From assembly GCA_030681555.1 (NCBI GenBank), contig JAUXRW010000038.1, forward strand, positions 1 to 63,651: 63,651 nt of DNA, given 5' to 3'. The notes beneath the pieces are model-generated. The model worked only from the letters and a program-made list of their open reading frames with translations, searched no databases and was not told the DNA's origin. Both the position numbers and the translations under genes were made by a program. The DNA comes from Acidimicrobiales bacterium. GTDB lineage: Bacteria > Actinomycetota > Acidimicrobiia > Acidimicrobiales > VFJN01. This document shows positions 14,151-51,199 of this stretch, one piece after another; within the stretch, counting starts at the first letter, position 1; each line of letters opens with the position of its first letter.

Positions 14151-15011
14151 CTACGCGTCGGGACCCTCCGTGGGCGGACGCTGCCTGCGCTGCCGGACCA
14201 GACCAGAGGGATCGATCGGCAGATCGAAGCGCTCGCGGTTGTGGGAGTGGGCAAGGGAGTGCAGCCCGAACGCGCCCCGCATCGCGGTCCAGAAGCCCTG
14301 CGCCTCGAGGGCCTGGTTCACCGACTCCTTGGCCAGCTTGAGCGCAAACGAGGGCTTGGTCGCGATGCGCTCGGCCAGCACCAGGGCCTCGGTGTCCAGA
14401 TCGTCCCGGGACGGGACGACCCGGTTGACCATGCCGAGCTGCTGCGCCTCGGCGGCCGTGATCGCGTCGCCGGTGAAGAGGAGCTCCTTCGCCTTGCGAG
14501 CACCGAGCTCCCACGGGTGGGCGAAGTACTCGACTCCGTTGACGCCGAGGGCGACGGTGATATCGCTGAAGGTGGCTTCGGCGCTGGCGATGACCAGGTC
14601 GCAGACCCAGATCAACATCAGTGCGCCGGCGATGGAACGGCCGTGCACGGCGGCGATCGTGGGTTTCGGCAGGTTGCGCCAGCGCCAACACATGTTGAGA
14701 TAGACCTCCTCCTCCCAGGCCATGAATCCCTCCGCTCCTGGCCGGTCGAACGATGCCGACGTGCCCACGACGGCGTGGGTCTCGCCCATGGTTTGATCGG
14801 CGAGATCATGCCCGGAGCAGAAGTCGGGCCCGCGCCCGGCGAGGATGACGACCTTCACGGCGTCGTCCTGGGCCGCTCGGTCGAAGGCGGTGTTGAGCTC
14901 GTAGGTCATGCGCCGGCTCTGCGCGTTCCTGCGCTCCGGACGGTCGAGCACGATGCGTGCCACCCCCGGCGCGGGCTCTTCGTAGGCGATGGTTGTGAAC
15001 GTGGTGGACAC
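14151..15011 (-). CDS. Enoyl-CoA hydratase/isomerase (EchA13-like)
   Basis: LDRPERRNAQ, FCSGHDL, PKPTIAAVHG, AGALML..VCDL. Confidence 0.92.
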   Translation of the reverse strand: MSTTFTTIAYEEPAPGVARIVLDRPERRNAQSRRMTYELNTAFDRAAQDDAVKVVILAGRGPDFCSGHDLADQTMGETHAVVGTSASFDRPGAEGFMAWEEEVYLNMCWRWRNLPKPTIAAVHGRSIAGALMLIWVCDLVIASAEATFSDITVALGVNGVEYFAHPWELGARKAKELLFTGDAITAAEAQQLGMVNRVVPSRDDLDTEALVLAERIATKPSFALKLAKESVNQALEAQGFWTAMRGAFGLHSLAHSHNRERFDLPIDPSGLVRQRRQRPPTEGPDA

Positions 15012-15036
15012 GGGTCCTCATCGGGGTGGGAGGCGG

Positions 15037-15066
15037 TTGGACAGTTTCTAACTGATTGACTAGAAT
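15037..15066 (+). promoter_or_regulatory. Putative promoter with operator-like motif in the spacer
   Basis: TTGGAC-18 nt-TAGAAT; spacer contains ACTGATTGAC. Confidence 0.5.
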
Positions 15067-15135
15067 GTCACTTCGCTACGGTGCGCGGACCACAACTTCG
15101 GTGGTCTGCCACGAGACCTTACGACGGGGGCAAGG

Positions 15136-16359
15136 ATGCAGATCGAGGTGTTCCGGGAGGAGGCCGTCCGGTGGCTGAAGACCACCGCGGTACCGCGCGC
15201 CGACATCGCGGGGGACGCTCCGCTCGTGTGGGGGGCCGGCAGCGATTCGGTCGCCGTGTTCGAGAACACCACCGAGGAGGAGGAGCGACTCCAGGCCGAG
15301 CGGATCTCCGACTGGCAGAGCACCAAGTTCGACGCCGGGTACGGCGCCATCGCCTGGCCCACCGAACTCGGCGGCCGAGGGCTGACCCCCGCCCACGAGG
15401 CCGCCTTCCGGGCGGAGGAGGCGAAGTTCGAGACTCCGGGCTTCAACGAGCTGTTCGGCGTGACGATCGGCCTCGTGGCTCCCACCATCGGCATCTTCGG
15501 CACTCCGGAGCAGCAGCAGCGGTTCATCCCGTCGCTCCTGCGCACCGACCTCCTCGCCTGCCAGCTCTTCAGCGAGCCCGGTGCGGGCAGCGACCTGGCG
15601 TCGTTGTCGTGCCGGGCCGAGCGTGACGGCGACGGGTGGCGCATCACCGGGCAGAAGGTATGGACCTCCGGAGCCAGGGTGGCCCACTACGGCGAGGCCA
15701 TCTGTCGCACCGACCCCAGTGCCCCCAAGCACCATGGCATGACCGCCTTCCTCGTGCCCCTCGACGCGCCTGGCGTCGAGGTGCGGCCCATCCGCCAGAT
15801 GACCGGTGGGTCCACCTTCAACGAGGTGTTCCTCGAGGACGTGCTCGTGCCCGACGACCTCCGACTGGGAGCCCCCGGCGACGGGTGGAAGGTCGCGCTC
15901 ACCACGTTGGGCTTCGAGCGAGGGCTCTCCAGCGCGGGTGGTGGCGGGCTCGGCGGGTCCTTCCGACGGCTCCACGCCCTCTCCCGGCAGCTCGACCGCA
16001 CCACCGAGCCCGTGACCCGCCAGCAGCTGGCGAAGCTCTACATCGGCGAGCGGCTCCTCTCGATGCTCGGCCAGCGGGCCCGTGCCGCCATGGAGGCGGG
16101 AGGGCCACCGGGGCCGGAGGGCTCGGTGGGCAAGCTGCTCTGGACGCAGAACATGAGCCGCACGAGCGACCTGGCCTCTACCCTCCTCGGCCCCCGCCTC
16201 GGGGCGGACACCGGCGAGTGGGGCACCTTCGCCTGGGCGGAGCACCTGCTGGGTGCCCCCGGGTACCGGATCGCCGGCGGGAGTGACGAGATCCAGCGCA
16301 ACATCATCGGCGAGCGGGTTCTCGGCCTGCCCCGGGAGCCGAGGCCCGCCGCTCCATGA
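15136..16359 (+). CDS. Acyl-CoA dehydrogenase (FadE-type)
   Basis: CQLFSEPGAGSDLA, GQKVWTS, FNEVF, GGSDEIQRNIIGERVLGLPREP. Confidence 0.94.
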   Translation: MQIEVFREEAVRWLKTTAVPRADIAGDAPLVWGAGSDSVAVFENTTEEEERLQAERISDWQSTKFDAGYGAIAWPTELGGRGLTPAHEAAFRAEEAKFETPGFNELFGVTIGLVAPTIGIFGTPEQQQRFIPSLLRTDLLACQLFSEPGAGSDLASLSCRAERDGDGWRITGQKVWTSGARVAHYGEAICRTDPSAPKHHGMTAFLVPLDAPGVEVRPIRQMTGGSTFNEVFLEDVLVPDDLRLGAPGDGWKVALTTLGFERGLSSAGGGGLGGSFRRLHALSRQLDRTTEPVTRQQLAKLYIGERLLSMLGQRARAAMEAGGPPGPEGSVGKLLWTQNMSRTSDLASTLLGPRLGADTGEWGTFAWAEHLLGAPGYRIAGGSDEIQRNIIGERVLGLPREPRPAAP

Positions 16360-16378
16360 CCGTCACCCGGAGGTTTCC

Positions 16379-17917
16379 ATGTCGATCGTGACCCGCCGAG
16401 GTCGAGCCGACGACGAGCGCGCCGTCGCACTGGCCGACGCCACGCAGGAGCTCACCTGGGACGCCCTCGACCAGGTCCTCAACCGCATCGGCAACGCCCT
16501 GCTGACGGAGCTGAGCCCAGGCGCTGATCGCGTGGCCATCTTCGCGGAGAACGCCCTCGAGACGGTGGCCGCCCACCTCGGTGCCATCGGCGTAGGCGTG
16601 TCGTCCGTCCCCGTCAGCTTCCACCTCACCGAGGACGAGCTGGCCTACATCCTCAAGGACTCCGGGAGCCGGCTGCTGCTGGTCGGCCCCGAGACGGCGC
16701 CCCGCGGCGTGGCCGCAGCGCAGCAGGCTGGTATCACCGTCGTGGGCTGGCGGTGTGAGGGCCAGCCGGGGGTCGAGGACTGGGACGCGTGGCTCGCTCG
16801 CGCCGACGCCTCCGAGCCACCCACGGACGTGCCGCCGCGGCCCTTCCTCCACTACACCTCGGGCACCACGGGTTTGCCGAAGGGCACCGACACACCTCCG
16901 GCGATGTTCGCGGGGGGCGAGACGTTGGAGGAGCACTTCGACAACGTCGCGGCTACGAACCTCTTCACAGGCACCAACCTGATCGTCAGCCCCGTCTACC
17001 ACACGGGCCCCCTCTCCACGCTGCGAGCGCTCGCTGCCGGCACGCGACTGGTGGTGCTGGGCCGGTTCGACCCCGAGGGCGTCCTGCGGGCGATCGATCG
17101 CTACAAGGTGACCTCGACGGTGATGGTGCCCACCCACTTCGCCCGGCTCCTGAGCCTGCCCGAGGACGTGCGGAAGCGTTACGACCTCTCCAGCCTGGCC
17201 GTAGTGGCGCACACGGGGGCCTCGTGCCCCGTAGAGGTCAAGCGCCGGATGATCGACTGGTTCGGGCCCGTGTTGATCGAGGCCTATGGCGCCACCGAGT
17301 CAGGCACGACCAACATGATCACCTCTCCCGAGTGGCTCGAGCACCCGGGGTCGGTCGGTCGCACGCTCCCGCCCTTCGAGGTGGTGGTGGTGAGCGAGGA
17401 GGGGGAGGAGCTCCCGACCGGCGAGGTCGGGGTCCTCTACTTCCGCGACACGACCGGACGGGGCATCCGCTACCACAACGACCCGGAGAAGACGGCCAAG
17501 GCCCACCGCCGACCGGGCGAGTTCACCCTGGGCGACGTGGGCTACGTGGACCCCGACGGCTACGTGTACATCACCGACCGCACGTCCGACATGGTCATCT
17601 CGGGAGGGGTCAACATCTACCCGGCCGAGGCGGAGGCGGTGTTACTCGAGCATCCGGCCGTGGACGACGTGGCCTGCATCGGCGTACCCCACATCGAGAT
17701 GGGCGAGCAGCTGCAGGCCCTCGTCGTGCTGCGGGCCGGCGAGCCGGCCCCCACCGAAGCCGAGCTCATCGACTTCGCCCGAGGTCGGATCGCCCACTAC
17801 AAGTGCCCCCGCTCCGTCGACTTCGTCGAGGACCTGGGCCGCAACGCCATGGGCAAGCTGAACAAGCGCGCCCTGCGCGCCCCCTACTGGCCCAGCGACC
17901 GGACGATCGGCGGCTGA
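16379..17917 (+). CDS. Acyl-CoA synthetase (AMP-binding)
   Basis: YTSGTTGLPKG, YGATE, GDVGYVD, SGGVNIYP, GKL. Confidence 0.94.
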   Translation: MSIVTRRGRADDERAVALADATQELTWDALDQVLNRIGNALLTELSPGADRVAIFAENALETVAAHLGAIGVGVSSVPVSFHLTEDELAYILKDSGSRLLLVGPETAPRGVAAAQQAGITVVGWRCEGQPGVEDWDAWLARADASEPPTDVPPRPFLHYTSGTTGLPKGTDTPPAMFAGGETLEEHFDNVAATNLFTGTNLIVSPVYHTGPLSTLRALAAGTRLVVLGRFDPEGVLRAIDRYKVTSTVMVPTHFARLLSLPEDVRKRYDLSSLAVVAHTGASCPVEVKRRMIDWFGPVLIEAYGATESGTTNMITSPEWLEHPGSVGRTLPPFEVVVVSEEGEELPTGEVGVLYFRDTTGRGIRYHNDPEKTAKAHRRPGEFTLGDVGYVDPDGYVYITDRTSDMVISGGVNIYPAEAEAVLLEHPAVDDVACIGVPHIEMGEQLQALVVLRAGEPAPTEAELIDFARGRIAHYKCPRSVDFVEDLGRNAMGKLNKRALRAPYWPSDRTIGG

Positions 17918-17922
17918 CCAGG

Positions 17923-19233
17923 ATGGATCGATGGCGTGGCGCGCTCTCGAGGTTCCGCGTGTCCGCGCGGACCCTCCTGCTCGCGGCCACGACGGCCTTC
18001 GGCGTGGCCGCTGCGGTCGCGATCCTGCGCGTGACCGAGGTGTCCGAACCCCGGCTCACCCTGCCCGTGGAGCGGCCCGCTCGAACCCGGCCAACGGCGA
18101 TGCGGCAGACCACGGTCACCACCGGGCAGGGCGCCCCCACCACCCAGCTCTCCGACACCACTGCGTCGTCGCCGCCGGGTGGTGGAACGACCATCTCGGC
18201 CGGCCTCGCCTACCGCTGGTCACCGATCGCAGGGGTGGACGAATTCAGCGCGCCAGACGCGGGAGGCGGGCTGACCGCAGTCGCCGCCGTCGAGGGCGAG
18301 GGTCTGATCGCGGTAGGCGGCTCGCGCGACGCCCCGCTGGTCCTCGTGTCACCCGACGGGCTCGGTTGGTCCCGGGTCGATGCCGCGGAGGAGGATCTCC
18401 AGGGTGCCGCCCTGCGGGACGTCGCCGTGGTCGACGGTCGCCTCGTGGCCGTCGGATCACTGCGGGGCGCCCCCGCCGCCTGGACGTCGCTCGACGCCGT
18501 GCAGTGGAGCCGGGTGCCCGTGACCGACCCGGCCAACGAGCTGGGCGTCGGCCTGCTCGAGGCCCTGGCCCAGTCGCCTGACGGGTCGGTGTTCGCCGTG
18601 GGGTTCAGTCCCGGCAGCGCCGGCATCTGGGCCCTTCACGACGGTCGATTCGAGCCAGAGTCGTCCGCGAGGACACCGAGCGTCGGCCAGGTGCTCTCCG
18701 ATGTCGTCTCCACCTCGAAGGGTGTCGTCGCGGCCGGGAACGATGCTGAAGGCCAGCCCATCGCCCTCCGGTCGACGGGTGAGGGCACCTGGTCCACTGC
18801 GGTGCTCCCCGCCGAAGGTGGCCGTGCCTCGGTCGCCGCGCTGGGAGAGATCGGCGACGTCGTGGTCGCCGTGGGCTACGGCGTCCCGGGCCCGCTGGTT
18901 TGGTCGTCGGCAGACGCGCAGAGCTGGTCGGCCGTGACCGCCCCGACGACGTCCCCCGGCCGCCCCGCCGGGCTCTACGCGGTGGCACCGGGACCGGGTG
19001 GCGCGCTGGCCGGCGGTCAACGTCCCGGGGGACCGCTGTGCTCGTCCTCGACCGATGGAACGTCATGGTCCGAATGCGACGGCGAGGACGGGCTGCGGAC
19101 GGCGGCCGTGAGAGATCTTCTCGCCGTAGGCGCGGGTTTCGTCGCCGTCGGTACCTCGACGCCAGAGGACGGCCAGGCAGGTCCGGCCATATGGCACGTC
19201 GAACGTGAACCACGAGCAGCGCAGGCGCGCTGA
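17923..19233 (+). CDS. Exported beta-propeller-like protein with Asp-box-like repeats
   Basis: N-terminal hydrophobic helix, Thr/Pro linker, about 7 repeats of the form VAVG...WxSxDGxxW. Confidence 0.7.
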   Translation: MDRWRGALSRFRVSARTLLLAATTAFGVAAAVAILRVTEVSEPRLTLPVERPARTRPTAMRQTTVTTGQGAPTTQLSDTTASSPPGGGTTISAGLAYRWSPIAGVDEFSAPDAGGGLTAVAAVEGEGLIAVGGSRDAPLVLVSPDGLGWSRVDAAEEDLQGAALRDVAVVDGRLVAVGSLRGAPAAWTSLDAVQWSRVPVTDPANELGVGLLEALAQSPDGSVFAVGFSPGSAGIWALHDGRFEPESSARTPSVGQVLSDVVSTSKGVVAAGNDAEGQPIALRSTGEGTWSTAVLPAEGGRASVAALGEIGDVVVAVGYGVPGPLVWSSADAQSWSAVTAPTTSPGRPAGLYAVAPGPGGALAGGQRPGGPLCSSSTDGTSWSECDGEDGLRTAAVRDLLAVGAGFVAVGTSTPEDGQAGPAIWHVEREPRAAQAR

Positions 19234-19248
19234 AGGGGGAAGCAGAGA

Positions 19249-21057
19249 ATGGTCAACCCGGTCCTACGTCGATACACGCCGGTCATCATCTTCTTGGTGG
19301 CGCAGCTCCTCATCGTCGCGATGGTGCCTGTCGACGACGACGAGCTGTCCGCCAGCTCCAGCGTTACTTCCGGCTCGGGGCTCGTAGCTCAGCCCGGCGA
19401 CTCGGTCGTCGGTTCGGACGGCCAGCCGCTGTCGAGCGACGACGCGAGCCTCGTCGCCGGTACGAACGGCGAGGCTGCGCCCAGCGGCTCCGGCGGTGCG
19501 CAGGCGCTGCCCAGCGGGGCAGGGATCAAGCCGGCGCCTGGCGTCCAGGGCCTGGTGTCGGGTCTGAACGCTGCTGAAGAGGGCGTGTGGCCCTGGACGA
19601 ACCCTTGGCTCCTCGAGGGCGACCGGAGCAAGTGCGGCCCCGGCGGGCAGCTCCAGGACGAGGTGCTGGTGTTCTCGATCCCCTGCGTGCCTGCCTACAC
19701 GGGCGACAACGGCGGTGCGACCTACTCCGGCGTCACGGAGGACGAGATCCGGCTCGTGATGATCGTCCCCAAGGCCAACCCCGCCATCGTCGCCGCGCTG
19801 TCAGGCGTCGGCCTGTGGGCCACCCCTGAGCAGTGGGACGCCGGGGGCAAGGCCTTCGCCAAGTTCTTCAACGAGCACTACAACTTCTACGGCCGCCGCA
19901 TCAAGGCCTACACCCACCTGGCCGAGTGCGAGGGCGGCCCCTTCGGCGGCGGCGGCGGCTCCACCGACCTGGCCTGCTGGCGAGAGCAGGCCAGGATCAT
20001 CCAGGCCAAGTACAAGCCCTTCGTGACCTTCTTCACCTCCCCCCATCCTGCCGAGGTGTTCGACGAGCTGAGCCGGCTCAAGATCCTGAACGTGGGCGGC
20101 TGGCTGTACGACGCCGGCTTCAGCAAGGACCGGGCGCCCTACCACTGGGACCTGTTCACCGACGGCTCCCGCACGGCGGCCAACGTTGCCAACTACTGGT
20201 GCAACCGCATGGTCGGGCAGAAGGCGTCCCGAGCCGGCGACCCGGGCCTTAAGGACAAGGTCCGCAAGCTCGCCATCGTCACCCCGGAGTACCCCTTCTA
20301 CGTGTCGGCGGCGAAGTTCCTGGCCGAGCAGGTCTCGGGCGGCCAGTGCGGCGCCGGGGGCGACGTGCCGAAGGTCTACCAGTACTCCCAGTCGGACCTG
20401 GCCAAGGCGCAGGAGCAGATGACGCTCATCGCCACGCAGATCAAACAGGACCAGGCCACCACCGTCACCTGCCTCTGCGACCTTCTCGCTCCGGTGTACC
20501 TAACCAGCGAGCTCGACAACCAGCAGTGGTTCCCCGAGCACCTCCTGGCCCTGCAGGAGGGTGCCGACCACGACTACCCGGCCCGGCTCTACAGCCCCCG
20601 CCAGTGGGACAACGCCTTCGGACCCAGCCCCCGGCCGATGGAGATCCCCAAAGAGCAGCAGGACGACTACGTGATGTGGAAGATGGCCGGCAACACGTCC
20701 GAGCCTCCCTACGTGCTCACGGTCGTACAGATGTACTACCACCTCATCGCAGCGATGCTGCAGTGGGCCGGCCCCAACCTCACGCCCGAAACCGTGCAGC
20801 GGGGCGCCTTCAGCCTCTCCCAGCTCGGCGGGTTCGGGGGCGAGGCGCCCTGGCCCGGCTGGCAGGGCAACGATCCCCGGGTGCAGCTGTGGACCTTCGG
20901 CCCTGACGACTACACGGCCAACGACGACACCAAGGAGGTGTACTTCTCGTCCTCGGCGCGATCCCGCATCGACGACCAGCCCGGGACCTACATCTGCGCC
21001 AGGGACTGCGCTCGCACGCCCATTGCGGGCTGGTCGAAGGGCGCGCCGCTCCAGTGA
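19249..21057 (+). CDS. LIV/HAAT-type ABC substrate-binding protein (atypical, membrane-anchored)
   Basis: 602 aa; N-terminal TM without lipobox; GDNGGATYSGVTEDEIR, YGRRI; precedes the fused transporter. Confidence 0.8.
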   Translation: MVNPVLRRYTPVIIFLVAQLLIVAMVPVDDDELSASSSVTSGSGLVAQPGDSVVGSDGQPLSSDDASLVAGTNGEAAPSGSGGAQALPSGAGIKPAPGVQGLVSGLNAAEEGVWPWTNPWLLEGDRSKCGPGGQLQDEVLVFSIPCVPAYTGDNGGATYSGVTEDEIRLVMIVPKANPAIVAALSGVGLWATPEQWDAGGKAFAKFFNEHYNFYGRRIKAYTHLAECEGGPFGGGGGSTDLACWREQARIIQAKYKPFVTFFTSPHPAEVFDELSRLKILNVGGWLYDAGFSKDRAPYHWDLFTDGSRTAANVANYWCNRMVGQKASRAGDPGLKDKVRKLAIVTPEYPFYVSAAKFLAEQVSGGQCGAGGDVPKVYQYSQSDLAKAQEQMTLIATQIKQDQATTVTCLCDLLAPVYLTSELDNQQWFPEHLLALQEGADHDYPARLYSPRQWDNAFGPSPRPMEIPKEQQDDYVMWKMAGNTSEPPYVLTVVQMYYHLIAAMLQWAGPNLTPETVQRGAFSLSQLGGFGGEAPWPGWQGNDPRVQLWTFGPDDYTANDDTKEVYFSSSARSRIDDQPGTYICARDCARTPIAGWSKGAPLQ

Positions 21058-24000
21058 CCTCGCCCTCAGGCGCGTGGGTGGCTCGGCTGCGCACGGATCC
21101 CCGGCTCGGTCCCGTCCGGATGGCGGGCGCCACCCTCGCAGTGATCTTGGCGCTCCGGCTCGCCTTCCGACCCGGGGCCCCCCCGGGCGTGTTCCTCAAC
21201 GGCGCCATCGTCGGCGGCCTGTACGGGCTGATCGCGATGGGGCTCATCCTGATCTACAAGTCCGACCGCATCATCAGCTTCGCCCAGGCAGGTCTCGGCG
21301 CCTTCCCAGCGGTCCTGGCGCTGAACCTGTACATCCAGCGCGACTGGCCCTTTGCCCTGTGCCTGGTACTGGCTCTGGCCGGGTCCTTCGCCATCGGCGC
21401 CCTCGCCCAGCGCCTCATCATCCGCCGCTTCGCCTCCTCCCCACGCCTGATCCTCACCGTGGCCACGATCGGGCTGGCCCAGCTCCTGGCCTTCGCGGAG
21501 TTCATGAGCCCCACCTGGATCGGCGGTGAGGTGACCCCCACCGGGGCCGTGCGCACGCCGGTGAGCGGGATCACTGCGGACATCGGGGGCATCGTGTTCC
21601 GTGGCGACCACCTTGCTGCGGTCGTCGTCGTGGTCCTTGCCGCCCTCGGCCTGGGATGGTTCCTGAACGGGACCCGGGTGGGTGTGGCGGTCCGTGCGGT
21701 GGCCGAGAACCGTGACCGGGCCCAGCTCGCCGGCGTGCCCGTGGCCCGCCTCGGCACCATCGTATGGGGGGTGGCTGGGTTGCTCTCGGGCATCGGCGTG
21801 TTCTTCCGGGCGCCGATCACAGGGCTGCCACTCGGAAGCCTCATCGGGCCACAGGTGCTCCTGTTCGCCCTCGCAGCCGCGGTCATTGCTCGCATGGAAC
21901 GACTGGGCGTAGCCCTGCTGGCCGGCGCACTCCTGGGCATGTTCGACCAGGCGGCGTTCTACTCGACGCGCACGGCGAGCATCTCCACCGCTCTGCTCCT
22001 GCCCATCGTGCTCGCTGCCCTTTTGGTGCAGCGCCGTCACCTGTCCCGGGCGGCGGACTCCGGTAGCGCCACCTGGCAGGCGGTGCGACCCCTGCGCACG
22101 CTGCCTCCACTGGTCCGCCGCCTGCCCGAGGTGCGGGTGGCCCGCGGTCTCGGCGCGGGGCTCTTCGCCGCCCTCCTCCTGGGTGCGCCCTTCCTCGTCG
22201 ACGAGCTCCGCCGCAACGACCTCTCCCAGGTGCTCCTCTTCGGAGTCATCGCCGTCTCACTCGTGGTCCTCACGGGCTGGACCGGCCAGATCAGCCTCGG
22301 CCAGTTCGCCTTCACCGGCGTCGGCTCAGCGGTGGCCGGCGGCCTGGCGGGCAAGGCCGGCGCGGACTTCTTCGTCGCCCTCCTCCTCGGCGGCCTGGCC
22401 GGGGCGGCGCTGTCCATGGTCGTAGGCATCCCCGCGCTACGCGTCAAGGGCTTCTTCTTAGCCCTGACCACGTTGGCCTTTGCCGCCTCGACGCAGGCCT
22501 ACGTGCTCAACCGGGAGCACTTCTCATGGCTGCTCCCCGAGATCGGCGACGCCATCGATCGCCCCAAGCTGTGGGGCGTGCTCGACCTGCGATCCGATTC
22601 CTCCTACTACTTCACCTGCCTCGCCCTGCTGCTGCTCGCGGTCGCCGGCGCCCGCAACCTCCGTCGGTCGCGCGCCGGTCGGGCCCTGGTGGCCACCCGT
22701 GACAACGAGCGAGCAGCGCAGAGCTACGGCATCAACCTCGCACGCGCCCGCCTCGGCGCCTTCGCCATCGCCGGATTCCTGGCCGGGAGCGCGGGCGCTC
22801 TCTACGTGTACCTCTACGAGGCAGTCGACCCGGAGAGCTTCGGCTCGAGCCGGAGCATCGACGTGTTCGCCATGGCGGTGATCGGAGGGCTCGGCTCGAT
22901 CGGAGGCGGCTTGGCGGGGGCCGTCTACGTCGTCGGCATCAAGGAGTTCCTCCCGCGCTACGAGCTGTTGGCTTCGGGCGGCGGGCTCCTCCTGCTGCTC
23001 ATGTTCCTCCCCGGCGGGCTGGCCGAGGTGGGCGTGCGCCTGCGCGACGCCTTCGTGAAGCTCGTCGCCCGCCGCCACGGGCTCGACGAACGAGCGTTGA
23101 AGTGGGGGGTGGAGGACGAGGGCGCAGTCACCGTGCTCGATTCGCACGCCTCCACCGACCCGGCCCCTGTCGTGGTAGGAGCTTCCTCCGCCGACGACGC
23201 CACCCTTCTGTGCCGCGGCGTCGATGCCGGCTATGACCGGGTGCAGGTGCTCTACGGGATCGACCTCGAGGTGCACCGCGGGGAGATCGTGGCGCTACTG
23301 GGCACGAACGGCGCCGGGAAGAGCACGCTCCTGCGCACCATCTGCGGTCTCCAGCCGGCCACCGCCGGGTCGGTGCGGTTCCGGGGCGAGGAGATCGTCG
23401 GCACCTCGGCGAGCGACATCGCCCGCCAGGGCCTCGTCTACATGCCCGGAGGTCGCGGTGTGTTCCCCACGCTCAGCGTGGAGGAGAACCTGCAGGTAGC
23501 CACCTGGCTCCTCTCGCCCGAGGAGGCCGAGGGTGCGGTGGAACGGGCTCTGGAGCAGTTTCCCCGCCTGCAGGAACGGATCGGCCAGATGGCCGGCAAC
23601 CTCTCCGGCGGTGAGCAGCAGATGCTCTCGCTGGCGATGGCGTTCGTCATGGTCCCCGATCTGCTCGTGATCGACGAGCTGTCGCTGGGGCTGGCGCCCG
23701 TCGTGGTGGGCCAGCTGGTGGAGTTCGTCAAAGCGATGAACCGCGCCGGGACGACGGTGCTCATCGTCGAGCAGTCCGTCAACCTGGCCCTCACCCTGGC
23801 TGATCGGGCCTACTTCATGGAGAAGGGCCAGGTGCGGTTCACGGGACCGACAGCTGAGCTCCTCGAGCGCGGCGACCTCCTGCGGGCCGTGATGCTACGG
23901 GGGGGACCCGACACGCCCGAGCCCTCACCCGAGCCGGTGCCCGAAGCCATCCCGGCCGCATCTCGCCGGCCGATCGTGGCGACACCGGCCTCTCCGGCGG

Positions 24001-25121
24001 CTCCTGACGTCTCGCCCGAGGGGGCGGGCGGCAGCGAGCCTGCCCACACCGGTCCGCTCCTCTCCCTCACCGACGTGCGGAAGCGCTTCGGGGGGGTCAC
24101 CGCTGTCGCCGGTGCCACCTTCGAGGTCCACCCCGGCGAGGTCCTCGGCATCATCGGTCCGAACGGCGCCGGCAAGACCACGACGTTCGACCTCATCTCG
24201 GGCTTCCTCCAGCCCGACGCCGGACAGATCCAGTTCCTCGGGGAGGACATCACGGGCCGCGCCCCCGACGTGCGAGCCCGCGCTGGGCTGGGCCGACTGT
24301 TCCAGGACTCGCTCCTGTTCCCGTCGATGACCGTCACCGAGAACCTGGCGGTGGCGTTCGAGCGCCACATCCCCATCCACGACGACCTGGCCGCCCTGCT
24401 CGGCCTGCCGGAGGTCCGCCGGGCCGAGGGCGACATTGCCTGGTCGGTCCACGACCTCCTGGAGCTCTTCGACCTGGGTCTCGTGCGCGACCTGTTGGCA
24501 GGAGAGCTCTCCACCGGCACGCGGCGCGTCGTCGACCTCGCCATGGCCGTGGCCCACGCCCCCGCAGTCCTTCTGCTTGACGAGCCGTCCTCGGGGCTGG
24601 CCCAGCGCGAGACGGAGGCCTTGACCCCCATGCTGCGCCGCATCCAACGCGAGACAGGTGCGGCGATGGTGATCATCGAGCACGACATGAGCCTCATCAC
24701 CGAGGTGTCCGATCGGATGCTGGCCCTCGAGGTCGGCGTGGTAATCGCGCAGGGTTCGCCGTCTGAGGTCGTGTCCCATCCGCGGGTGGTGTCGTCCTAT
24801 CTGGGTGGCGACGACGCCGCCATCGGCCGCTCCGGCCCGCCACGGCGATCCACCGCACGTCGGGCGCCGGAGCCAGGCAACGGCACGGCGCCGGGAGGAC
24901 GGTCGGGGAAGGCCCCGGCCGAGCCGGGGCCCCAGCGGGCTGCGACGGCGAAGGCGTCGGCAACCGCCGCGAAGGCGAAGCCCAAGGCGGCTGCGACGCC
25001 CAACGGGTCGGGCGCCGATAACGCCAAGGCGAGCGGGGCCGGCATCCCCCGACGCGCGGCCCGATCACGTGACGAGACGCTCACCGCTGCGGGTTCGCGG
25101 CGGACGACGACGAAAGGATGA
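21054..25121 (+). CDS. Single-chain LIV-type ABC transporter (LivH-LivM-LivF-LivG fusion)
   Basis: 1355 aa; NFAQ-type LivH and GQISLGQ LivM TMDs; NBD1 GTNGAGKS/LSGGEQQM/DELSLGLAP; NBD2 GPNGAGKT/LSTG/DEPSSGL/EHDM. Confidence 0.92.
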   Translation: MTSPSGAWVARLRTDPRLGPVRMAGATLAVILALRLAFRPGAPPGVFLNGAIVGGLYGLIAMGLILIYKSDRIISFAQAGLGAFPAVLALNLYIQRDWPFALCLVLALAGSFAIGALAQRLIIRRFASSPRLILTVATIGLAQLLAFAEFMSPTWIGGEVTPTGAVRTPVSGITADIGGIVFRGDHLAAVVVVVLAALGLGWFLNGTRVGVAVRAVAENRDRAQLAGVPVARLGTIVWGVAGLLSGIGVFFRAPITGLPLGSLIGPQVLLFALAAAVIARMERLGVALLAGALLGMFDQAAFYSTRTASISTALLLPIVLAALLVQRRHLSRAADSGSATWQAVRPLRTLPPLVRRLPEVRVARGLGAGLFAALLLGAPFLVDELRRNDLSQVLLFGVIAVSLVVLTGWTGQISLGQFAFTGVGSAVAGGLAGKAGADFFVALLLGGLAGAALSMVVGIPALRVKGFFLALTTLAFAASTQAYVLNREHFSWLLPEIGDAIDRPKLWGVLDLRSDSSYYFTCLALLLLAVAGARNLRRSRAGRALVATRDNERAAQSYGINLARARLGAFAIAGFLAGSAGALYVYLYEAVDPESFGSSRSIDVFAMAVIGGLGSIGGGLAGAVYVVGIKEFLPRYELLASGGGLLLLLMFLPGGLAEVGVRLRDAFVKLVARRHGLDERALKWGVEDEGAVTVLDSHASTDPAPVVVGASSADDATLLCRGVDAGYDRVQVLYGIDLEVHRGEIVALLGTNGAGKSTLLRTICGLQPATAGSVRFRGEEIVGTSASDIARQGLVYMPGGRGVFPTLSVEENLQVATWLLSPEEAEGAVERALEQFPRLQERIGQMAGNLSGGEQQMLSLAMAFVMVPDLLVIDELSLGLAPVVVGQLVEFVKAMNRAGTTVLIVEQSVNLALTLADRAYFMEKGQVRFTGPTAELLERGDLLRAVMLRGGPDTPEPSPEPVPEAIPAASRRPIVATPASPAAPDVSPEGAGGSEPAHTGPLLSLTDVRKRFGGVTAVAGATFEVHPGEVLGIIGPNGAGKTTTFDLISGFLQPDAGQIQFLGEDITGRAPDVRARAGLGRLFQDSLLFPSMTVTENLAVAFERHIPIHDDLAALLGLPEVRRAEGDIAWSVHDLLELFDLGLVRDLLAGELSTGTRRVVDLAMAVAHAPAVLLLDEPSSGLAQRETEALTPMLRRIQRETGAAMVIIEHDMSLITEVSDRMLALEVGVVIAQGSPSEVVSHPRVVSSYLGGDDAAIGRSGPPRRSTARRAPEPGNGTAPGGRSGKAPAEPGPQRAATAKASATAAKAKPKAAATPNGSGADNAKASGAGIPRRAARSRDETLTAAGSRRTTTKG

Positions 25122-26206
25122 GCATGATGGGCAAGTTCGGACGAGGTCCCGGTCGGCTCGGCGCGGGGCTGGCGGCGGCGGCCTTCGCCGTGCTTGTCGT
25201 CACCCCCACGGCGGCGGCGGCTCCACGACAGGAAGATCCACCGGTGACGCTGCCTCCGCCGCCCGTCACGGTGCAGCAGGTGATCAACGAGCTGCTCCCG
25301 CTGATCCGCCAGCTCGATCCGCTGACCCAGCAGGTAGGGCCGGTGCTCGCCCAGCTCGACGGGCTCTTCGTCGCCGGAGGTGAGTTCGCGACCCAGTTCG
25401 CCGCCCTCGGTCAGCAGCTCGATCCGATCCTGTCCACCGCAGGGACCCCGATCGGCTCGCTGGGCGCGGCCCTGGAACCGCTGTTCGTCACCATCGACGA
25501 GCAGGTGTCCCCTCAATTGCAGGACCTGCTCGCGCTCCTCGGGCCCTACGTCAACCAGGTCGATCTCGCCACGGCGTTCCAGCTCATCGGGCCGCTCGCG
25601 CCGAGCGCCCTCAAGGTCATCCCCACGCTGAACAAGTTCTATGACGGCGTGGATGCGATCACGGGCCCGGTCACCTACCCGATCACCTGCCCGCTGGCCC
25701 GCGCCGTTCCCCAGCAGAAGCTGCTCGATATCGTCGTTCCCTTCCTGTGCTACGACACGCTGGCGGCGGTCGGCCAGATCTCCGATGGCGCGCCCGCCGA
25801 CCCGCTCCCACCCGCCGACATGCCCCCCAGCGATTCGGTGGAGGTGCCGGGAAACGATCCCGTCGCCGATCCCGTCGATCCCCTCACTGACCCCGTCGTT
25901 GATCCATCGGCGCTGACCTCGGGAGGGTCCTCGCTGGATGCCTTGCCCCCCCTGGCCTCGACGCCCACGGCATCGAGCAACAGCGTGCCAAGAGCGTCGG
26001 GTACGGCGGCCGAACCCCTCGCGACGCTCAACGCGAGCGACGCGCAGGTGGAAGCGCTCGAGGACCGCATGCGGCTCATGGCCATCCTCGCCGTCGCCAT
26101 CGGCGCTCTCCTGTGGAGCGCGTTCCGCGCCCCCGCGGATGACGGGAGGGGTGGGCTCGGGGCGTTCCGCAAGTCCCGTGCTGAGCCACCGCCAACGCTG
26201 AGCTGA
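25118..26206 (+). CDS. Secreted, C-terminally anchored helical protein (unknown)
   Basis: Signal peptide AAAAP, amphipathic helical repeats, Pro/Asp linker, TM LMAILAVAIGALLW, short tail. Confidence 0.75.
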   Translation: MSMMGKFGRGPGRLGAGLAAAAFAVLVVTPTAAAAPRQEDPPVTLPPPPVTVQQVINELLPLIRQLDPLTQQVGPVLAQLDGLFVAGGEFATQFAALGQQLDPILSTAGTPIGSLGAALEPLFVTIDEQVSPQLQDLLALLGPYVNQVDLATAFQLIGPLAPSALKVIPTLNKFYDGVDAITGPVTYPITCPLARAVPQQKLLDIVVPFLCYDTLAAVGQISDGAPADPLPPADMPPSDSVEVPGNDPVADPVDPLTDPVVDPSALTSGGSSLDALPPLASTPTASSNSVPRASGTAAEPLATLNASDAQVEALEDRMRLMAILAVAIGALLWSAFRAPADDGRGGLGAFRKSRAEPPPTLS

Positions 26207-26245
26207 CCGTCCGTCCCGCCATCCCACGTCCCATCGGAGATCCCT

Positions 26246-27622
26246 TTGAGCACTCCCGCCCGTTCGCTTGGCCCTGCCCCCGCGAGCCTGCTCCTGCCCA
26301 AGTCCCGGCTGCGCAAGCGCCGAGCGGCGCGGATCGTGTGGACCGGTGTCCGCCACTCGGCGGTGTTCGGCGGACGCGTGATCCGGCGCCCCCGTAACGG
26401 TGTGGCCGCTCCCGGGGCATCGGAGATGCGGCGCGCCTTCGAGAACCTCGGCCCGACCTTCGTGAAGTTCGGTCAGGTCATCGCCTCGTCGCCGGCGTTC
26501 CCGGTGTCCCTGGTCCAGGAGTTCGAGCGGTGCCTCGACCAGGTACGCCCTGAGCCGATCGAGGCCGTGCGCCGGACGATCGAGGAGTCGATCGGTGATG
26601 TCGAGGAGCACTACGCCCGCGTCGACTGGACCCCGGTGGCCGCGGGTTCGATCGCACAGGTCTTCCGGGCCTGGGGCCACGACGGTGAGGCTCTCGTCAT
26701 CAAGGTGCAGAGACGCAACCTGCAGGAGGTGCTGCGCAACGACGTGCGGATGCTGCACCTCGGCGCACGCGCGATCTCCCGTGTCGTCCCATCGCTCCGG
26801 TCGATCAACCCTGTCGGCGTCGTCGAGGACTTCGCCGCCACGCTGGCCCAGGAGCTGAGCTTCGTCGAGGAGGCCAGGCAGATGGAGGTCCTGGCCGCCT
26901 CCCTGGAGGGCTGGCCGGTGCGTGTCCCCGAGGTCCGCTGGGACCGTACGACGGAGAAGGTCCTCACCATGACTCACCTCGAGGGCGTCAAGATCTCCGA
27001 CCTCGACGGCCTCGACCGCTACGGCGTCGACCGATCCAAGCTCGTCGACGTGGTTTTCGGCCTGCTGCTCTACACGGCGTGCCGCCACGGGATGTTCCAC
27101 GGTGACATGCACGCGGGGAACATCATCGTGCAGCCCGACGGGAAGGTCGCACTCATCGACTTCGGCATCGTGGGTCGGCTTCCGGGCCAGCTCCGCCTGC
27201 AGGTCTCCGAACTGCTCCAGTGCCTGTTCGAGGAGCGCTGGGATCGGCTGGCGCCCCTCTGCTTCGAGATGGCCGACATGGACGACGTGGACCTGGAGGG
27301 AGCGATCGGCGACCTCACCCAGGTGGCGGAGAAGTACCTGGCAATGCCCCTCCACGAGATGCCCCTCGCCGAGATGGTCGGCGACATCCTTCAGCGCTGC
27401 AACAAGTACGGGTTCGTGATGCCCTCAGACGTGATCTTGTTCTTCAAGAGCCTCATGTACCTCGATGGGCTGGGAATCCGGATCCACCCGGGCTATGAGG
27501 TGCTCAACCCCGAGCACGGCCTCGCGTTGCGGCCCTTCCTTGCGCCGGAGACCGGCGGGAGCCCCCAGGGCGTGGAGCCCACCTATGGCTACGAGAGCGT
27601 TCTGCAACTTGTCGATAACTGA
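26246..27622 (+). CDS. ABC1/UbiB/AarF-family atypical kinase/ATPase
   Basis: LGPTFVKFGQ, AGSIAQV, VIKVQR, FHGDMHAGN, DFG. Confidence 0.92.
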   Translation: MSTPARSLGPAPASLLLPKSRLRKRRAARIVWTGVRHSAVFGGRVIRRPRNGVAAPGASEMRRAFENLGPTFVKFGQVIASSPAFPVSLVQEFERCLDQVRPEPIEAVRRTIEESIGDVEEHYARVDWTPVAAGSIAQVFRAWGHDGEALVIKVQRRNLQEVLRNDVRMLHLGARAISRVVPSLRSINPVGVVEDFAATLAQELSFVEEARQMEVLAASLEGWPVRVPEVRWDRTTEKVLTMTHLEGVKISDLDGLDRYGVDRSKLVDVVFGLLLYTACRHGMFHGDMHAGNIIVQPDGKVALIDFGIVGRLPGQLRLQVSELLQCLFEERWDRLAPLCFEMADMDDVDLEGAIGDLTQVAEKYLAMPLHEMPLAEMVGDILQRCNKYGFVMPSDVILFFKSLMYLDGLGIRIHPGYEVLNPEHGLALRPFLAPETGGSPQGVEPTYGYESVLQLVDN

Positions 27623-27637
27623 TTGATCGATTAGTAT
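27609..27637 (+). promoter_or_regulatory. Putative promoter with a palindromic operator in the spacer
   Basis: TTGTCG-17 nt-TAGTAT; near-palindrome ACTGATTGATCGATTAGT. Confidence 0.55.
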
Positions 27638-27687
27638 GTGCCGTCTTCTGGTGACGCCGGTCACATCTAGGGAGAGAGGGAGGGAGC

Positions 27688-27993
27688 GTGCCCACCGTTC
27701 GGGTCGAACCCGCCGGACTGGAGTTCGAGGTGGGGGCCGCGGAGACCATGATGGAGGCGGCACTGCGCCACGGCTATCGATGGCCCACGATCTGCGGGGG
27801 CCGGGGGCAATGCCGTGCATGTTTCGTCGAGGTGCTCGACGGGGGTGACCAGTTCGGCCCGATCGGGAGATGCGAGGCTGAGGGGATCCAGATCCTTGCC
27901 GAGAGCGGTGAGGATCCGGCAGCTGTGCGGCTGGCCTGTCAGGCCAGCGTCCGCGGTTCGGTGACGGTGCGCAAGCGAGGTGTTCGTAGGTGA
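27688..27993 (+). CDS. [2Fe-2S] ferredoxin
   Basis: CGGRGQCRAC...RLACQ. Confidence 0.9.
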   Translation: MPTVRVEPAGLEFEVGAAETMMEAALRHGYRWPTICGGRGQCRACFVEVLDGGDQFGPIGRCEAEGIQILAESGEDPAAVRLACQASVRGSVTVRKRGVRR

Positions 27994-28060
27994 CACGACG
28001 CCGCAGGCGGCGTGGTGGATGGACGTGGATCCAGCTGAATGGGAGAGGGAGAGCAACCTG

Positions 28061-29482
28061 ATGGACTTCGACGTGGTGGTGGTGGGCAGTGGAGCTGCCG
28101 GACTCAGTGCGGCTCTGGAGGCGAGCGCGGCGGGCTCGTCGGTGCTCCTCGTAGACGGGCAGGGGTGCACCGGAGGCTCCTCGGCGCTGTCGGGCGGCAT
28201 CGTGATGGCGGCCGGCACCTCTGTCCAGCGCAAGGCGGGGATCGAGGACAGCGCCGAGCAGCTCTTCCGTGACTACCTGCTGTTCAACCAGTACAAGGTC
28301 GAGCCGGCGCTGGCTCGCCGCCTGGCCTATGGCGGAGGTCCGGCCATCGAGTGGCTGATCGATCTGGGGGTCGAGTTCCACGACCAGCTGATGTTCGCCG
28401 CTGAGGAACGAGCCCCGCGCTCTCATGTCCCCAAGATGATGGGCTTCGGGGTGATCGACGTCCTGCAGAGCCGGGTGCGGGAGAAGCCCTCCGTCGAGGT
28501 CGCGCTCGGGCAGCGCGTCAACCGGCTGCTCGTGAAGGAGGGCCGGGTGGTCGGGGTCGCCGTGGACGACGATGAGCTCACGGCCGGCGCGGTGGTGATC
28601 GCCACCGGCGGCTTCGGCGCGAACCGGGCGCTGTGGCCCGAGCACCTGCCCTCGATCGCCGCCTCGGGCTCGGCTGCCTGGTACATCGGCACCGATGGCG
28701 CCCAGGGCGACGCATTCGCCCTCGGCGCACAGGTCGGCGCCGCCGTGGTCGGTCACGATCGCTCCCTGATCCTGCCCACACCGGACTTCTTCTCGAACCT
28801 CGAGGTGTACTTCCCCGGGTGGCTGGTCATGGTGAATCGCGCCGGCCGGCGGTGCGTCGACGAGTCGACCTCCTATGCCGTGATGCAGCTGGCCAACCAG
28901 CAGCACGGGCCGCTGTTCGCCGTGCTCGACGACGCCGCCAAGCGGGCGGCTCAACCCGACGCGCCCCCGCAGTACAAGCAGTCGATCCCGGGGACCGAGG
29001 GCATGACCCTGCCGTCCAACTGGACCGAGCCCAACATCGATGACGCGGTGGCCAAGGGCAAGATGAGGCAGGCGGGTTCGCTCACCGAGCTCGGTCGCCT
29101 GCTCGGCGTCGATCCGGCCGGGTTCGCGGCGTCGGTGGAGCGCTACAACACCAATTGCGCTGACGGGGCCGATCCCGAGTACTTCAAGGACCCAAAGTTC
29201 CTGCGGCCCATCTCCACCCCGCCCTTCTACGGAGCGGAGCTCCGCATGGGCATCCTCTGCCTCACGTCCAAGGGACTGCGGATCGACGAGCACGCACGTG
29301 TGCTCGATCGCAGCGGCGGCCCGATCCGCGGCCTCTACGCGGCGGGAGAGTGCACCGGTGGGGTGCTGGGCGACGTGTACATGGGCAGCGGGAACTCCTA
29401 CGCCAACTGTGTCGTGTTCGGTCGCACCGCGGGCCAGTCGGCTGCCGCCTTGGCCTCCGAGCTGGCCGAGGCCGCGGTGTGA
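28061..29482 (+). CDS. FAD-dependent oxidoreductase (flavocytochrome c / 3-ketosteroid dehydrogenase-like)
   Basis: VVVGSGAAG, GGSSALSGG, ATGGFG, TSKGLRID, GLYAAGE, GNS; start MDFDVV at 28061. Confidence 0.88.
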   Translation: MDFDVVVVGSGAAGLSAALEASAAGSSVLLVDGQGCTGGSSALSGGIVMAAGTSVQRKAGIEDSAEQLFRDYLLFNQYKVEPALARRLAYGGGPAIEWLIDLGVEFHDQLMFAAEERAPRSHVPKMMGFGVIDVLQSRVREKPSVEVALGQRVNRLLVKEGRVVGVAVDDDELTAGAVVIATGGFGANRALWPEHLPSIAASGSAAWYIGTDGAQGDAFALGAQVGAAVVGHDRSLILPTPDFFSNLEVYFPGWLVMVNRAGRRCVDESTSYAVMQLANQQHGPLFAVLDDAAKRAAQPDAPPQYKQSIPGTEGMTLPSNWTEPNIDDAVAKGKMRQAGSLTELGRLLGVDPAGFAASVERYNTNCADGADPEYFKDPKFLRPISTPPFYGAELRMGILCLTSKGLRIDEHARVLDRSGGPIRGLYAAGECTGGVLGDVYMGSGNSYANCVVFGRTAGQSAAALASELAEAAV

Positions 29483-30201
29483 CCGGACCGCTGCTCTCCG
29501 TGCGTGACCTCGAGGTCAGCTACGGCACCATCCCCGCGGTGCGGGGTGTCTCGCTCGACGTGGGAGCAGCCGATCGGGTAGCCATCGTGGGGCGCAACGG
29601 GGCGGGCAAGACGTCCACCCTGCGGGCCATCGCCGGGATCACGCCGGCCAAGGGCGGTCGCATCGAGTACGACGGGGTCGACATCACCCGGCAGGCCCCC
29701 GGCAAGCGGTTGGCTCGTGGCTTGGCCCTGGTGCCGGAAGGTCGGGGCCTGTTCGGGCAGCTGACCGTAGAGGAGAACCTCGTCATGGGCGCCTACCACC
29801 GCGACCTGCGCGGCCCCGCCCTCGCCGAGGAGATGGAGCGCGTCACCGAGCGCTTCCCACGCGTGCGCGAGCGCATGAGCCAGCTTGCCAACAGCATGTC
29901 CGGGGGGGAGCAGCAGATGCTGGCCATCGCTCGAGGCCTGATGACCGCGCCGTCGGTGCTGGTCGTGGACGAGCCTTCGCTGGGTCTGTCCCCCGTGCTC
30001 GTCGACGAGATCTACGAGTTGTTCGCTGCGCTCAGCGCCGAGGGCACTGCCGTCGTCGTCGTCGAGCAGTACGTAGCGCTGGCGCTGCGTTTCGCGCGCC
30101 ACGCGTACGTTCTCGACAAGGGTGCCGTGGCGCTGGCCGGCGACGCCTCGGAGCTCTCGGCCAACCCCGATCTCGTCGACGTCTACATGGCGGCGGTCTG
30201 A
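29479..30201 (+). CDS. LivF-like ABC ATPase
   Basis: GRNGAGKT, MSGGEQQM, DEPSLGLSP, VEQ. Confidence 0.93.
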   Translation: MTGPLLSVRDLEVSYGTIPAVRGVSLDVGAADRVAIVGRNGAGKTSTLRAIAGITPAKGGRIEYDGVDITRQAPGKRLARGLALVPEGRGLFGQLTVEENLVMGAYHRDLRGPALAEEMERVTERFPRVRERMSQLANSMSGGEQQMLAIARGLMTAPSVLVVDEPSLGLSPVLVDEIYELFAALSAEGTAVVVVEQYVALALRFARHAYVLDKGAVALAGDASELSANPDLVDVYMAAV

Positions 30202-30202
30202 G

Positions 30203-50752: not shown

Positions 50753-51199
50753 ATGACCGCCTCCCATTCGACCCCGGACCCGACCGACGGGGTCACGGAG
50801 GGCCAAACGACGAACCGCCGGCACCCCGGCATACCTCTGGATCGCAGCCTCACGATGCTCGTGCTTGGCATGGTGTCGGGAGCAGGGGGCCTTGTCGGCA
50901 TGTTCGTCTCGCTCAGCCGAGTCCGGCCCGAACCCGAGGTGTTCCGTCAATTCCCCTACCTCATCAGCGCGATCATCGCGACGGGCTTCTTCGTCGTCGG
51001 CGCCATCCTGGTGCTCGGCCACTTCGTCTGGCGTTCGTACCAGGAGACGCGGACCCTGACGCGCGAGTTGGAGGAAGCGGCGGCCGCCCTCATGTGGGAA
51101 CAGCTCGGGCTGCCAGCGGCGAACGGCTCACCGCCCGCGTCGGAGCCCGATCGAGGGGCGCGGCCGCTCACCTCAGCGCGGCGCAACACGGGTAGATGA
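50753..51199 (+). CDS. Small 2-TM membrane protein with QxPYLxS motif
   Basis: 148 aa; TM-EVFRQFPYLISA-TM then coiled-coil. Confidence 0.78.
   Translation: MTASHSTPDPTDGVTEGQTTNRRHPGIPLDRSLTMLVLGMVSGAGGLVGMFVSLSRVRPEPEVFRQFPYLISAIIATGFFVVGAILVLGHFVWRSYQETRTLTRELEEAAAALMWEQLGLPAANGSPPASEPDRGARPLTSARRNTGR

Follow-up and report, generated by a model that had tools for sequence, protein, structure and literature searches.

In Escherichia coli, the LIV-I importer consists of LivJ/LivK, LivH, LivM, LivG and LivF and belongs to the hydrophobic amino acid uptake transporter (HAAT) family (TC 3.A.1.4 in the Transporter Classification). The system that we describe here is found in an Acidimicrobiales bacterium, on contig JAUXRW010000038.1 of assembly GCA_030681555.1 (63,651 nucleotides, the whole of this stretch being called the window below). 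It shares with LIV-I the four families of core domains, the BCA_ABC_TP_C end and a partner, here predicted to have the type I binding-protein fold, but its four domains, in the order H-M-F-G, lie on a single chain of 1355 residues, encoded by one gene (21054..25121). According to a review, prokaryotic ATP-binding cassette (ABC) transporters fuse two, occasionally three subunits (PMC3971661), and a natural importer chain with four domains goes beyond that statement.

The single-chain transporter and its predicted binding protein

The transporter frame starts with GTG, has no internal stop over its 1355 codons, and its GC content at third codon positions (GC3) is 0.83–0.93 in every block of 300 nucleotides (nt). 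Such steadiness, in DNA of 70% GC, marks a single real reading frame. The start of the gene overlaps the stop of the preceding 602-residue gene as GTGA, and its stop overlaps the start of the following gene as ATGA, which suggests that translation is coupled with that of both neighbours. The gene call of the protein databases begins eight codons later (1347 residues), which does not matter for the analysis. A scan of the region 15000..30000 for promoters and terminators returned a single promoter-like site, at 15038, and no terminator.

Pfam recognises in the chain two BPD_transp_2 stretches (PF02653, E 2.2e-52) and two ABC_tran stretches, followed by BCA_ABC_TP_C (PF12399) at residues 1230–1255. 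In a profile scan of the genome, where the window is contig C3, the two permease domains are at C3:21192-22016 and C3:22221-22952. The best NCBIfam assignments are a LivF/UrtE-like ATPase and then a LivG/UrtD-like one, and this assignment of the F and G types was checked reciprocally against the two other Liv systems of the window. The order LivH-LivM-LivF-LivG without an internal stop, which had been proposed in a preliminary description of this DNA, is borne out by the frame, by Pfam and by NCBIfam. The gene thus encodes all four core parts of a Liv-type ABC importer, with two non-identical permease domains, of LivH and LivM type, and two different ATPases, the G type bearing the terminal PF12399 motif.

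Both ATPases keep intact motifs for the binding and hydrolysis of ATP. The LivF-like domain has the Walker A motif GTNGAGKS, the signature LSGGEQQ and the Walker B motif IDE, with a glutamine replacing the histidine of the H-loop; the LivG-like domain has GPNGAGKT, LSTGTRR, LDEP and the H-loop histidine, and its BCA_ABC_TP_C motif ends in YLG. In 36 homologues, the Gly-Lys-Ser/Thr core of Walker A and the Asp-Glu pair of Walker B are invariant in both ATPases, as are most residues of the signature motifs, the remainder being at least 90% conserved; over sets of 36 to 61 homologues, the Walker A, Walker B and signature motifs of both domains are invariant or nearly so.

The AlphaFold2 (AF2) model of residues 45–1244 is confident (mean predicted local distance difference test, pLDDT, of 85.4; predicted template-modelling score, pTM, of 0.85), and only the two segments of low pLDDT listed in Table 1 are disordered. 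Ahead of the LivH-like domain is a poorly conserved extension of 44 residues that includes a hydrophobic stretch. The three connections between domains are of different kinds, so that their description as Pro/Ala linkers, which had been proposed, applies to one of them. The F-G linker does fit (14 Pro and 10 Ala among the 57 residues counted, 945–1001); its length varies from 22 to 66 residues among homologues, whose sequences cannot be aligned there. The M-F linker is rich in Val, Ala and Asp; it measures 40–80 residues across homologues, is not alignable either, and is the point of separation in relatives that have H-M and F-G on two chains. The H-M junction is no loose linker: its sequence is conserved and Arg-rich, and 45–46 residues separate the anchor columns in 36 of 36 aligned homologues.

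The tandem F-G part of the model superposes on DppD and OppD, the fused two-ATPase subunits of importers from Mycobacterium tuberculosis. With the permease half as query, a sequence search of the PDB matched no solved structure, and the same holds for any Liv-type permease, which makes the single chain an attractive structural target. Its single polypeptide, fixed stoichiometry and confident model would make it convenient for cryo-electron microscopy and reconstitution, on behalf of the very large Liv family.

The preliminary description called the transporter complete. This is right as far as the transmembrane and nucleotide-binding domains (TMD-TMD-NBD-NBD) on one chain are concerned, but the gene just upstream had been set aside as an unknown, and it is this gene that is predicted to code for the missing substrate-binding protein, membrane-anchored and with the LivJ fold. 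The 602-residue protein has no sequence match in Pfam, NCBIfam or the PDB, whether searched as a single sequence or as a 23-row profile; the Peripla_BP_6 model weakly matches 2 of the 23 members of the family and misses the protein of the window. Its AF2 model (pLDDT 79.5, pTM 0.78) consists of a membrane helix (anchor, residues 4–24), a disordered stalk of 85 residues (placed at 27–112) and a two-lobed alpha/beta domain with the fold of type I periplasmic binding proteins (PBP, residues ~120–600), which has an extra C-terminal beta element. When this model is compared with the PDB using Foldseek, the top 25 matches are all LivJ-like binding proteins of cluster B, type I (E down to 3e-12, target-normalised template-modelling (TM) score of about 0.7 at best); receptor domains of the same PBP fold come lower in the list. 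The best matches include binders of aromatic acids (4eyg, 4q6w, 4ey3), a fatty-acid binder (4n03) ranks 11th, and LivJ structures (4gnr, 1z15, 2liv) and UrtA (7s6e, 8tg1) are also present.

The genomic context points in the same direction. The binding-protein family adjoins transporters of the same clade, full-length or split, in all three loci of the organism's own genome and throughout its relatives; next to a single-chain gene, it is found in L002 and L003, which are Dormibacteraeota-like loci, in a metagenome-assembled genome (MAG) of Chloroflexota (L084) and in one of Acidimicrobiales (L086). If this assignment is right, Pfam and NCBIfam miss an entire family of binding proteins with the LivJ fold, and such genomes are annotated with transporters that lack receptors. 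Separately, a kinship of the 602-residue protein with a 510-residue unknown of the window's second Liv system was considered, and the comparison found none. In an assembly of long contigs (L085:8824-11269), a homologue of the binding protein lies downstream of the single-chain gene, in pieces of 195 and 443 residues, a split that is probably a frameshift in the assembly.

We propose, with a probability that we put at roughly 0.8, that the gene encodes the working, self-contained translocator of a binding-protein-dependent importer of the HAAT/LIV-I family (TC 3.A.1.4), that this translocator is served by the upstream binding protein, and that the fusion does not change the mechanism. The H-like and M-like permease domains would form the membrane pore, and the F-like and G-like ATPases, tethered behind the permeases by two flexible linkers, would form a head-to-tail nucleotide sandwich under it. 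The anchored LivJ-fold protein would capture the ligand outside the cell and dock on the pore of H and M; F and G, on their tethers, would close around two ATP and drive alternating access. Fusion would fix a 1:1:1:1 stoichiometry, ensure co-insertion and save assembly steps. Activity and direction of transport are what we infer here; anatomy, conservation, the binding-protein fold and the lability of the fusion described below are observed or computed.

Table 1. Parts of the transporter gene, its neighbours and related genes elsewhere (window positions, unless a locus or contig is named)
Feature	Position	Strand	Description
Single-chain transporter gene	21054..25121	+	1355 aa, H-M-F-G and tail, uninterrupted frame
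LivH-like permease domain	21186..22043	+	residues ~45–330; first BPD_transp_2 stretch, AF2 helical bundle, hydropathy
H-M junction	22044..22208	+	residues 331–385; Arg-rich, conserved, fixed length, net charge +5
LivM-like permease domain	22209..23048	+	residues 386–665; best BPD_transp_2 stretch 390–632, AF2 helices
M-F linker	23049..23198	+	residues 666–715; partly disordered, AF2 pLDDT <50 at 688–704
LivF-like ATPase	23199..23894	+	residues 716–947; NCBIfam LivF/UrtE-like 720–938; PDB 1ji0, E 1.8e-50
F-G linker	23895..24053	+	residues 948–1000; Pro/Ala-rich, disordered, AF2 pLDDT <50 at 948–996
LivG-like ATPase	24054..24806	+	residues 1001–1251; Pfam, NCBIfam LivG/UrtD-like 1001–1252, PDB 1g6h (LivG)
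Basic disordered tail and stop codon	24807..25121	+	residues 1252–1355, 104 aa, net +13
Cryptic substrate-binding protein (predicted)	19249..21057	+	602 aa; AF2 fold, conserved adjacency, GTGA overlap
Accessory protein	25118..26206	+	362 aa; signal peptide, extracytoplasmic domain, C-terminal membrane helix, short cytoplasmic tail; GLGAFRKSRAEPPP
Accessory counterparts	L001:4141-5190, L002:9705-10709, L084:5255-6265		shared C-terminal motif after the membrane helix
Acyl-CoA ligase gene	16253..17917		in the window, before the 436-aa gene
436-aa membrane-anchored protein	17923..19233		no family match; between the acyl-CoA ligase and binding-protein genes
UbiB/ABC1-type atypical kinase gene	26246..27622		follows the accessory gene; same in the closest relative locus, L001 (5233-6591)
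Paralogous system, H-M + F-G	own-genome contig C86:10250-15548		outside the window; headed by the Pfam-invisible binding-protein family
Paralogous system, H-M + F + G	own-genome contig C135:14048-19388		outside the window; headed by the Pfam-invisible binding-protein family

Distribution of the architecture and lability of the fusion

The preliminary description implied that the four-domain chain is rare, which is not what the databases say. More than 3000 matches to the chain came out of a search of 5.8 billion proteins that was restricted by length; the best 120 of these are all 1166–1423 residues long and 45–78% identical to it, and all but one cover 86–99% of the query. The named homologues among them come from MAGs of Acidimicrobiales, Frankiales, Mycobacteriales, other Actinomycetota, Chloroflexota and Dormibacteraeota, and are annotated generically as "ATP-binding cassette domain-containing protein". 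When representatives of clusters at 50% identity were searched with residues 41–1239 of the chain, about 50 of the best 150 were full-length four-domain chains, the others being of the types H-M, F-G, H-M-F and X-F-G. Of 20 related genomes, 8 show a match over the full length, without any stop in 6 cases and with one internal stop in 2. In an even sample of the class, such a match was found in 4 of 150 other genomes, and one further genome gave only a three-domain match of H-M-F length. A pattern scan of species-representative genomes was dominated by generic Walker-A matches and mostly returned ordinary, unfused Liv operons.

The preliminary description was to count as refuted if the architecture proved widespread and already characterised. 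Widespread it is, in metagenomic and MAG data; as for characterisation, no sign of it was found, and full-text literature searches, whose coverage is incomplete, did not turn up any paper that describes a Liv or other ABC importer with four domains on one chain. Its abundance in public data under generic names counts against novelty. The design is fairly common in uncultured Actinomycetota and neighbouring phyla, and under-described rather than a one-off.

For the F-G half, a tree was computed from 27 single chains and 12 systems in which H-M and F-G are separate, the outgroup being the window's systems 2 and 3. The one-chain and two-chain forms group together, apart from the outgroup, with 100% support. 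Within this clade the two states are interleaved: at least 4 changes are needed to account for the well-supported branches, and 6–7 are counted by parsimony. Because the H-M junction is conserved and of fixed length and the states are interleaved in the tree, H-M is an old, integrated fusion, while the M|F join is readily made and broken, presumably as a stop and a start are gained or lost where the two genes adjoin. That this join has been gained and lost repeatedly argues against a new mechanism arising from the fusion.

The window does contain three fusion states, as had been pointed out: the HMFG chain, an H-M fusion in system 2 (32637..34622, with F- and G-type ATPases in 29350..31108) and an M-G fusion in system 3 (52056..54050, between LivH at 51196..52059 and LivF at 54051..54770). 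They cannot be read as one series, since the clade of system 1 includes neither system 2 nor system 3. The true series lies on three contigs of the genome. The cryptic binding-protein family has three members there, and the gene of each directly precedes one for a transporter of the same clade: H-M + F + G on three chains (contig C135), H-M + F-G on two chains (C86), and HMFG on one (the window). This three-, two- and one-chain series within one genome is a natural experiment on what fusion buys. The genome scan found 22 BPD_transp_2 domains in all, hence about 11 systems in 3.3 Mb.

Other fusions were met during the searches. In one layout a complete MFS_1 domain is fused ahead of the LivF-LivG tandem (about 1000–1040 residues; L004:6022-9039 and L005:3105-6152, proteins P0203 and P0236), and the gene directly follows an H-M permease gene. 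This MFS-F-G layout occurs in many clusters at 50% identity and belongs to the same clade as the single chain of the window; in several relatives, a gap of 1.6 kb between the H-M and F-G matches has a size that fits an MFS domain. A cultured isolate, Nocardioides sp. BGMRC 2183, has a three-domain H-M-G chain (L007:4027-7701, an open frame of 1225 residues with two BPD_transp_2 stretches and one ABC_tran), which may offer a laboratory entry to fused Liv transporters.

The C-terminal tail and the neighbouring genes

The basic, low-complexity tail of about 100 residues noted at the C-terminus is confirmed. Its composition (26 Ala, 15 Gly, 13 Arg, 11 Pro, 7 Lys) is distributed over a proximal motif, GDDAAIGRSG, a spacer rich in Lys, Ala, Pro and Gly, and a degenerate distal element, RSRDETLTAA. 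In most homologues, the terminal YLG is followed by a conserved D-x-A-A-(I/V)-x-R-S-G and then by a short Arg-rich stretch, and the whole tail has a median length of 26 residues and a net charge of +4. The tail of the window is the longest among the 120 homologues listed; 13 others have a tail of at least 50 residues, several of them Lys/Ala-rich with AAKK-like runs. The distal motif reads RPRKEPLVAS in the closest relative and is also found in several relatives as RRxPL(K/R/V)A. The long tail had been presented as a feature of the four-domain fusion, a view that has to be given up: a similar tail is also found on the F-G proteins where the system is split, so that it is a trait of the G-type ATPase of the subfamily and not of the fusion, and its length is not kept. 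We see in it, on comparison of these sequences, what looks like an expanded form of an appendage common to this ATPase.

Downstream of the transporter, the 362-residue accessory protein has no family match in profile searches. The loci L001, L002, L084 and L086 have a gene of the same layout (328–349 residues) just behind that of the transporter; in L003 this place is taken by a cut gene. The protein of the window is 59% identical to its counterpart in L001; it gives no BLAST alignment with that of L002, and the two are linked only via intermediates and a shared C-terminal motif. This motif, similar to G-x-G-R-F-x-R-P-R-x-G-x-A-P, is present in the window, L001, L002 and L084, while the L086 protein ends otherwise. 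The accessory protein evolves fast. It is probably a third component of the transporter, and its C-terminal motif is a candidate docking peptide for the cytoplasmic side of the transporter.

On the other side, gaps of only 5 and 15 nt flank the gene of the 436-residue protein, which is probably in the same operon as the transporter. The operon continues, after the accessory gene, with the UbiB-type kinase, whose gene is not present in the more distant loci, and an FAD oxidoreductase. Acyl-CoA ligase genes are found nearby in 4 of 6 transporter contexts.

Alternative readings and comparison with known systems

It might be argued that the long frame is an artefact, in which mis-assembly, a frameshift or a decaying pseudogene joins separate livH, livM, livF and livG genes. 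The source assembly is indeed fragmented, spurious long frames do occur in such GC-rich DNA (an antisense frame of 852 residues at 24797..27355, for example), and the copies that hold an internal stop in two relatives (G006:C1 and G020:C38) could be taken as signs of decay. However, independent assemblies from many studies yield the same full-length protein, and the frames of 6 related genomes are intact; the evenly high GC3, the conserved catalytic motifs of both ATPases, the confident AF2 model and the overlaps with both neighbours, which suggest translational coupling, also speak against it. This explanation is close to refuted. A more serious question is whether the system is simply a classical importer of branched-chain or general amino acids, like LivHMGF of E. 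coli, with the fusion and the tail as neutral packaging. All four domains have their best or nearly best matches in Liv families, the fold matches of the binding protein include LivJ structures, and the frequent flips of the fusion state suggest that no functional shift is involved. On the contrary, the binding protein is too diverged for the Peripla_BP_6 model, the ATPases do not reach the equivalog cut-offs, the neighbours (acyl-CoA ligase, UbiB-type kinase, FAD oxidoreductase) are not genes of amino-acid metabolism, the best fold matches bind aromatic acids and the fatty-acid binder comes 11th, and the presence of about 11 systems in one genome implies a diversified cargo. We consider a classical amino-acid importer unlikely. 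Since acyl-CoA ligases recur in the contexts and the top fold matches bind aromatic or fatty acids, we lean, weakly, towards a cargo of carboxylates, hydrophobic or aromatic, and away from branched-chain amino acids.

Regarding the tail, it may be that its 104 residues are functionally empty, a low-complexity expansion of high GC that is tolerated at the end of the last domain; we give this a little less than an even chance. The tail shrinks to 61 residues in a relative that is 78% identical and to 34 in one that is 72% identical, its DNA gives no meaningful alignment with that of the closest relative, the family median is four times shorter, and the second and third codon positions of the tail have an equally high GC content. 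What an empty tail does not explain is that the net charge is positive in 90 of 119 homologues, that long Lys/Ala-rich tails have arisen repeatedly, and that the spacer is flanked by two short motifs, one near-universal and the other, RRxPL(K/R/V)A, found in 19 of 119 tails, about ninefold more than in shuffled sequences (mean 2, maximum 6). The kept charge, the recurrent long tails and the flanking motifs argue for selection on the charge and on tethered motifs, not on the sequence of the spacer, which would be free to drift and expand. We infer that the tail may act as a tethered regulatory or membrane-docking peptide, the length of its spacer being under little constraint. A bolder version, which we find improbable, is that the D-x-A-A-I-x-R-S-G motif, the variable basic spacer and the distal motif together make up an undescribed regulator built into an ABC importer, whose docking partner would be the ATPase dimer, anionic lipids or the G-x-G-R-F-x-R-P-R tail of the accessory protein, and which would gate ATP turnover. 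Were it true, the single-chain form would be a fully autonomous, self-regulating importer.

Coming back to the proposal of a self-contained HAAT-type translocator served by the upstream gene, several observations weigh against it. The assembly consists of 162 contigs. The 602-residue protein is only 9–13% identical to solved binding proteins and is identified by its predicted fold only. The cargo is deduced only from the neighbouring acyl-CoA ligase genes and from fold matches. The equivalog cut-offs of NCBIfam are not reached for LivG (NF008449, 301 vs 362) or LivF (NF008626, 257.6 vs 441), so that the ATPases are not orthologues of those of E. coli and the name LIV says nothing about the cargo. 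The tail cannot be aligned with those of the closest relatives and its distal motif is degenerate, which makes a largely neutral expansion possible.

Compared with E. coli LIV-I, the four domains are here on one chain and the ATPases come in the order F-G, as opposed to the gene order G-F; the binding protein, which Pfam does not detect, is anchored in the membrane and longer by about 250 residues; an accessory protein and a basic C-terminal tail are added, and the scores stay below the equivalog thresholds. The urea importer UrtABCDE is also close, since the best NCBIfam matches include UrtE and UrtD and the fold matches of the binding protein include UrtA structures, but the ATPases of Urt come in the order D (G-like) then E (F-like), which is reversed in the window. 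The identity of a urea transporter was rejected: the UrtE cut-off is passed only by summing the two ATPase domains (304.8 vs 285.8), UrtD scores 291 vs 304, the UrtA models of NCBIfam do not match the binding protein of the window, and no urease or urea-related gene was seen near the transporter.

OppABCD and DppABCD of M. tuberculosis (8j5q-8j5s, 8wd9-8wdb) are, like the present system, actinobacterial binding-protein-dependent importers that have both ATPases on one chain, and OppD and DppD are the best structural matches to the F-G half, as well as sequence matches. They belong to the peptide/Opp-type family, their permeases are separate subunits and their ATPases are not fused to membrane domains; by analogy, the fused DppD and OppD can be regarded as a precedent for the tandem ATPase arrangement in Actinomycetota. 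Full transporters of the ABCB1/P-glycoprotein type also have four core domains on a single polypeptide, but in the order TMD-NBD-TMD-NBD, with an exporter fold and no binding protein, whereas the window has TMD-TMD-NBD-NBD with importer-type permeases. An ABCB/ABCC-type identity was rejected on this difference of order, and the structural matches to ABCB1 are made via the ATPase domains only (TM ~0.3, root-mean-square deviation >25 Å).

The other Liv fusions of Actinomycetota (H-M, M-G, H-M-G, H-M-F, F-G and MFS-F-G) were encountered in the window, in relatives, in the Nocardioides isolate and among database clusters; they are of the same family and reveal the same tendency to fuse neighbours, and the chain of the window differs from them as the four-domain end state, a translocator without a partner subunit. 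Judging from sequence and predicted fold, the system has the defining features of HAAT importers that can be examined in this way, that of the receptor by predicted fold only. Its practical value is above its conceptual value, its main worth being that of a structural and biochemical handle and of a pointer to an unannotated receptor family. The chain is an uncharacterised form within the known HAAT family.

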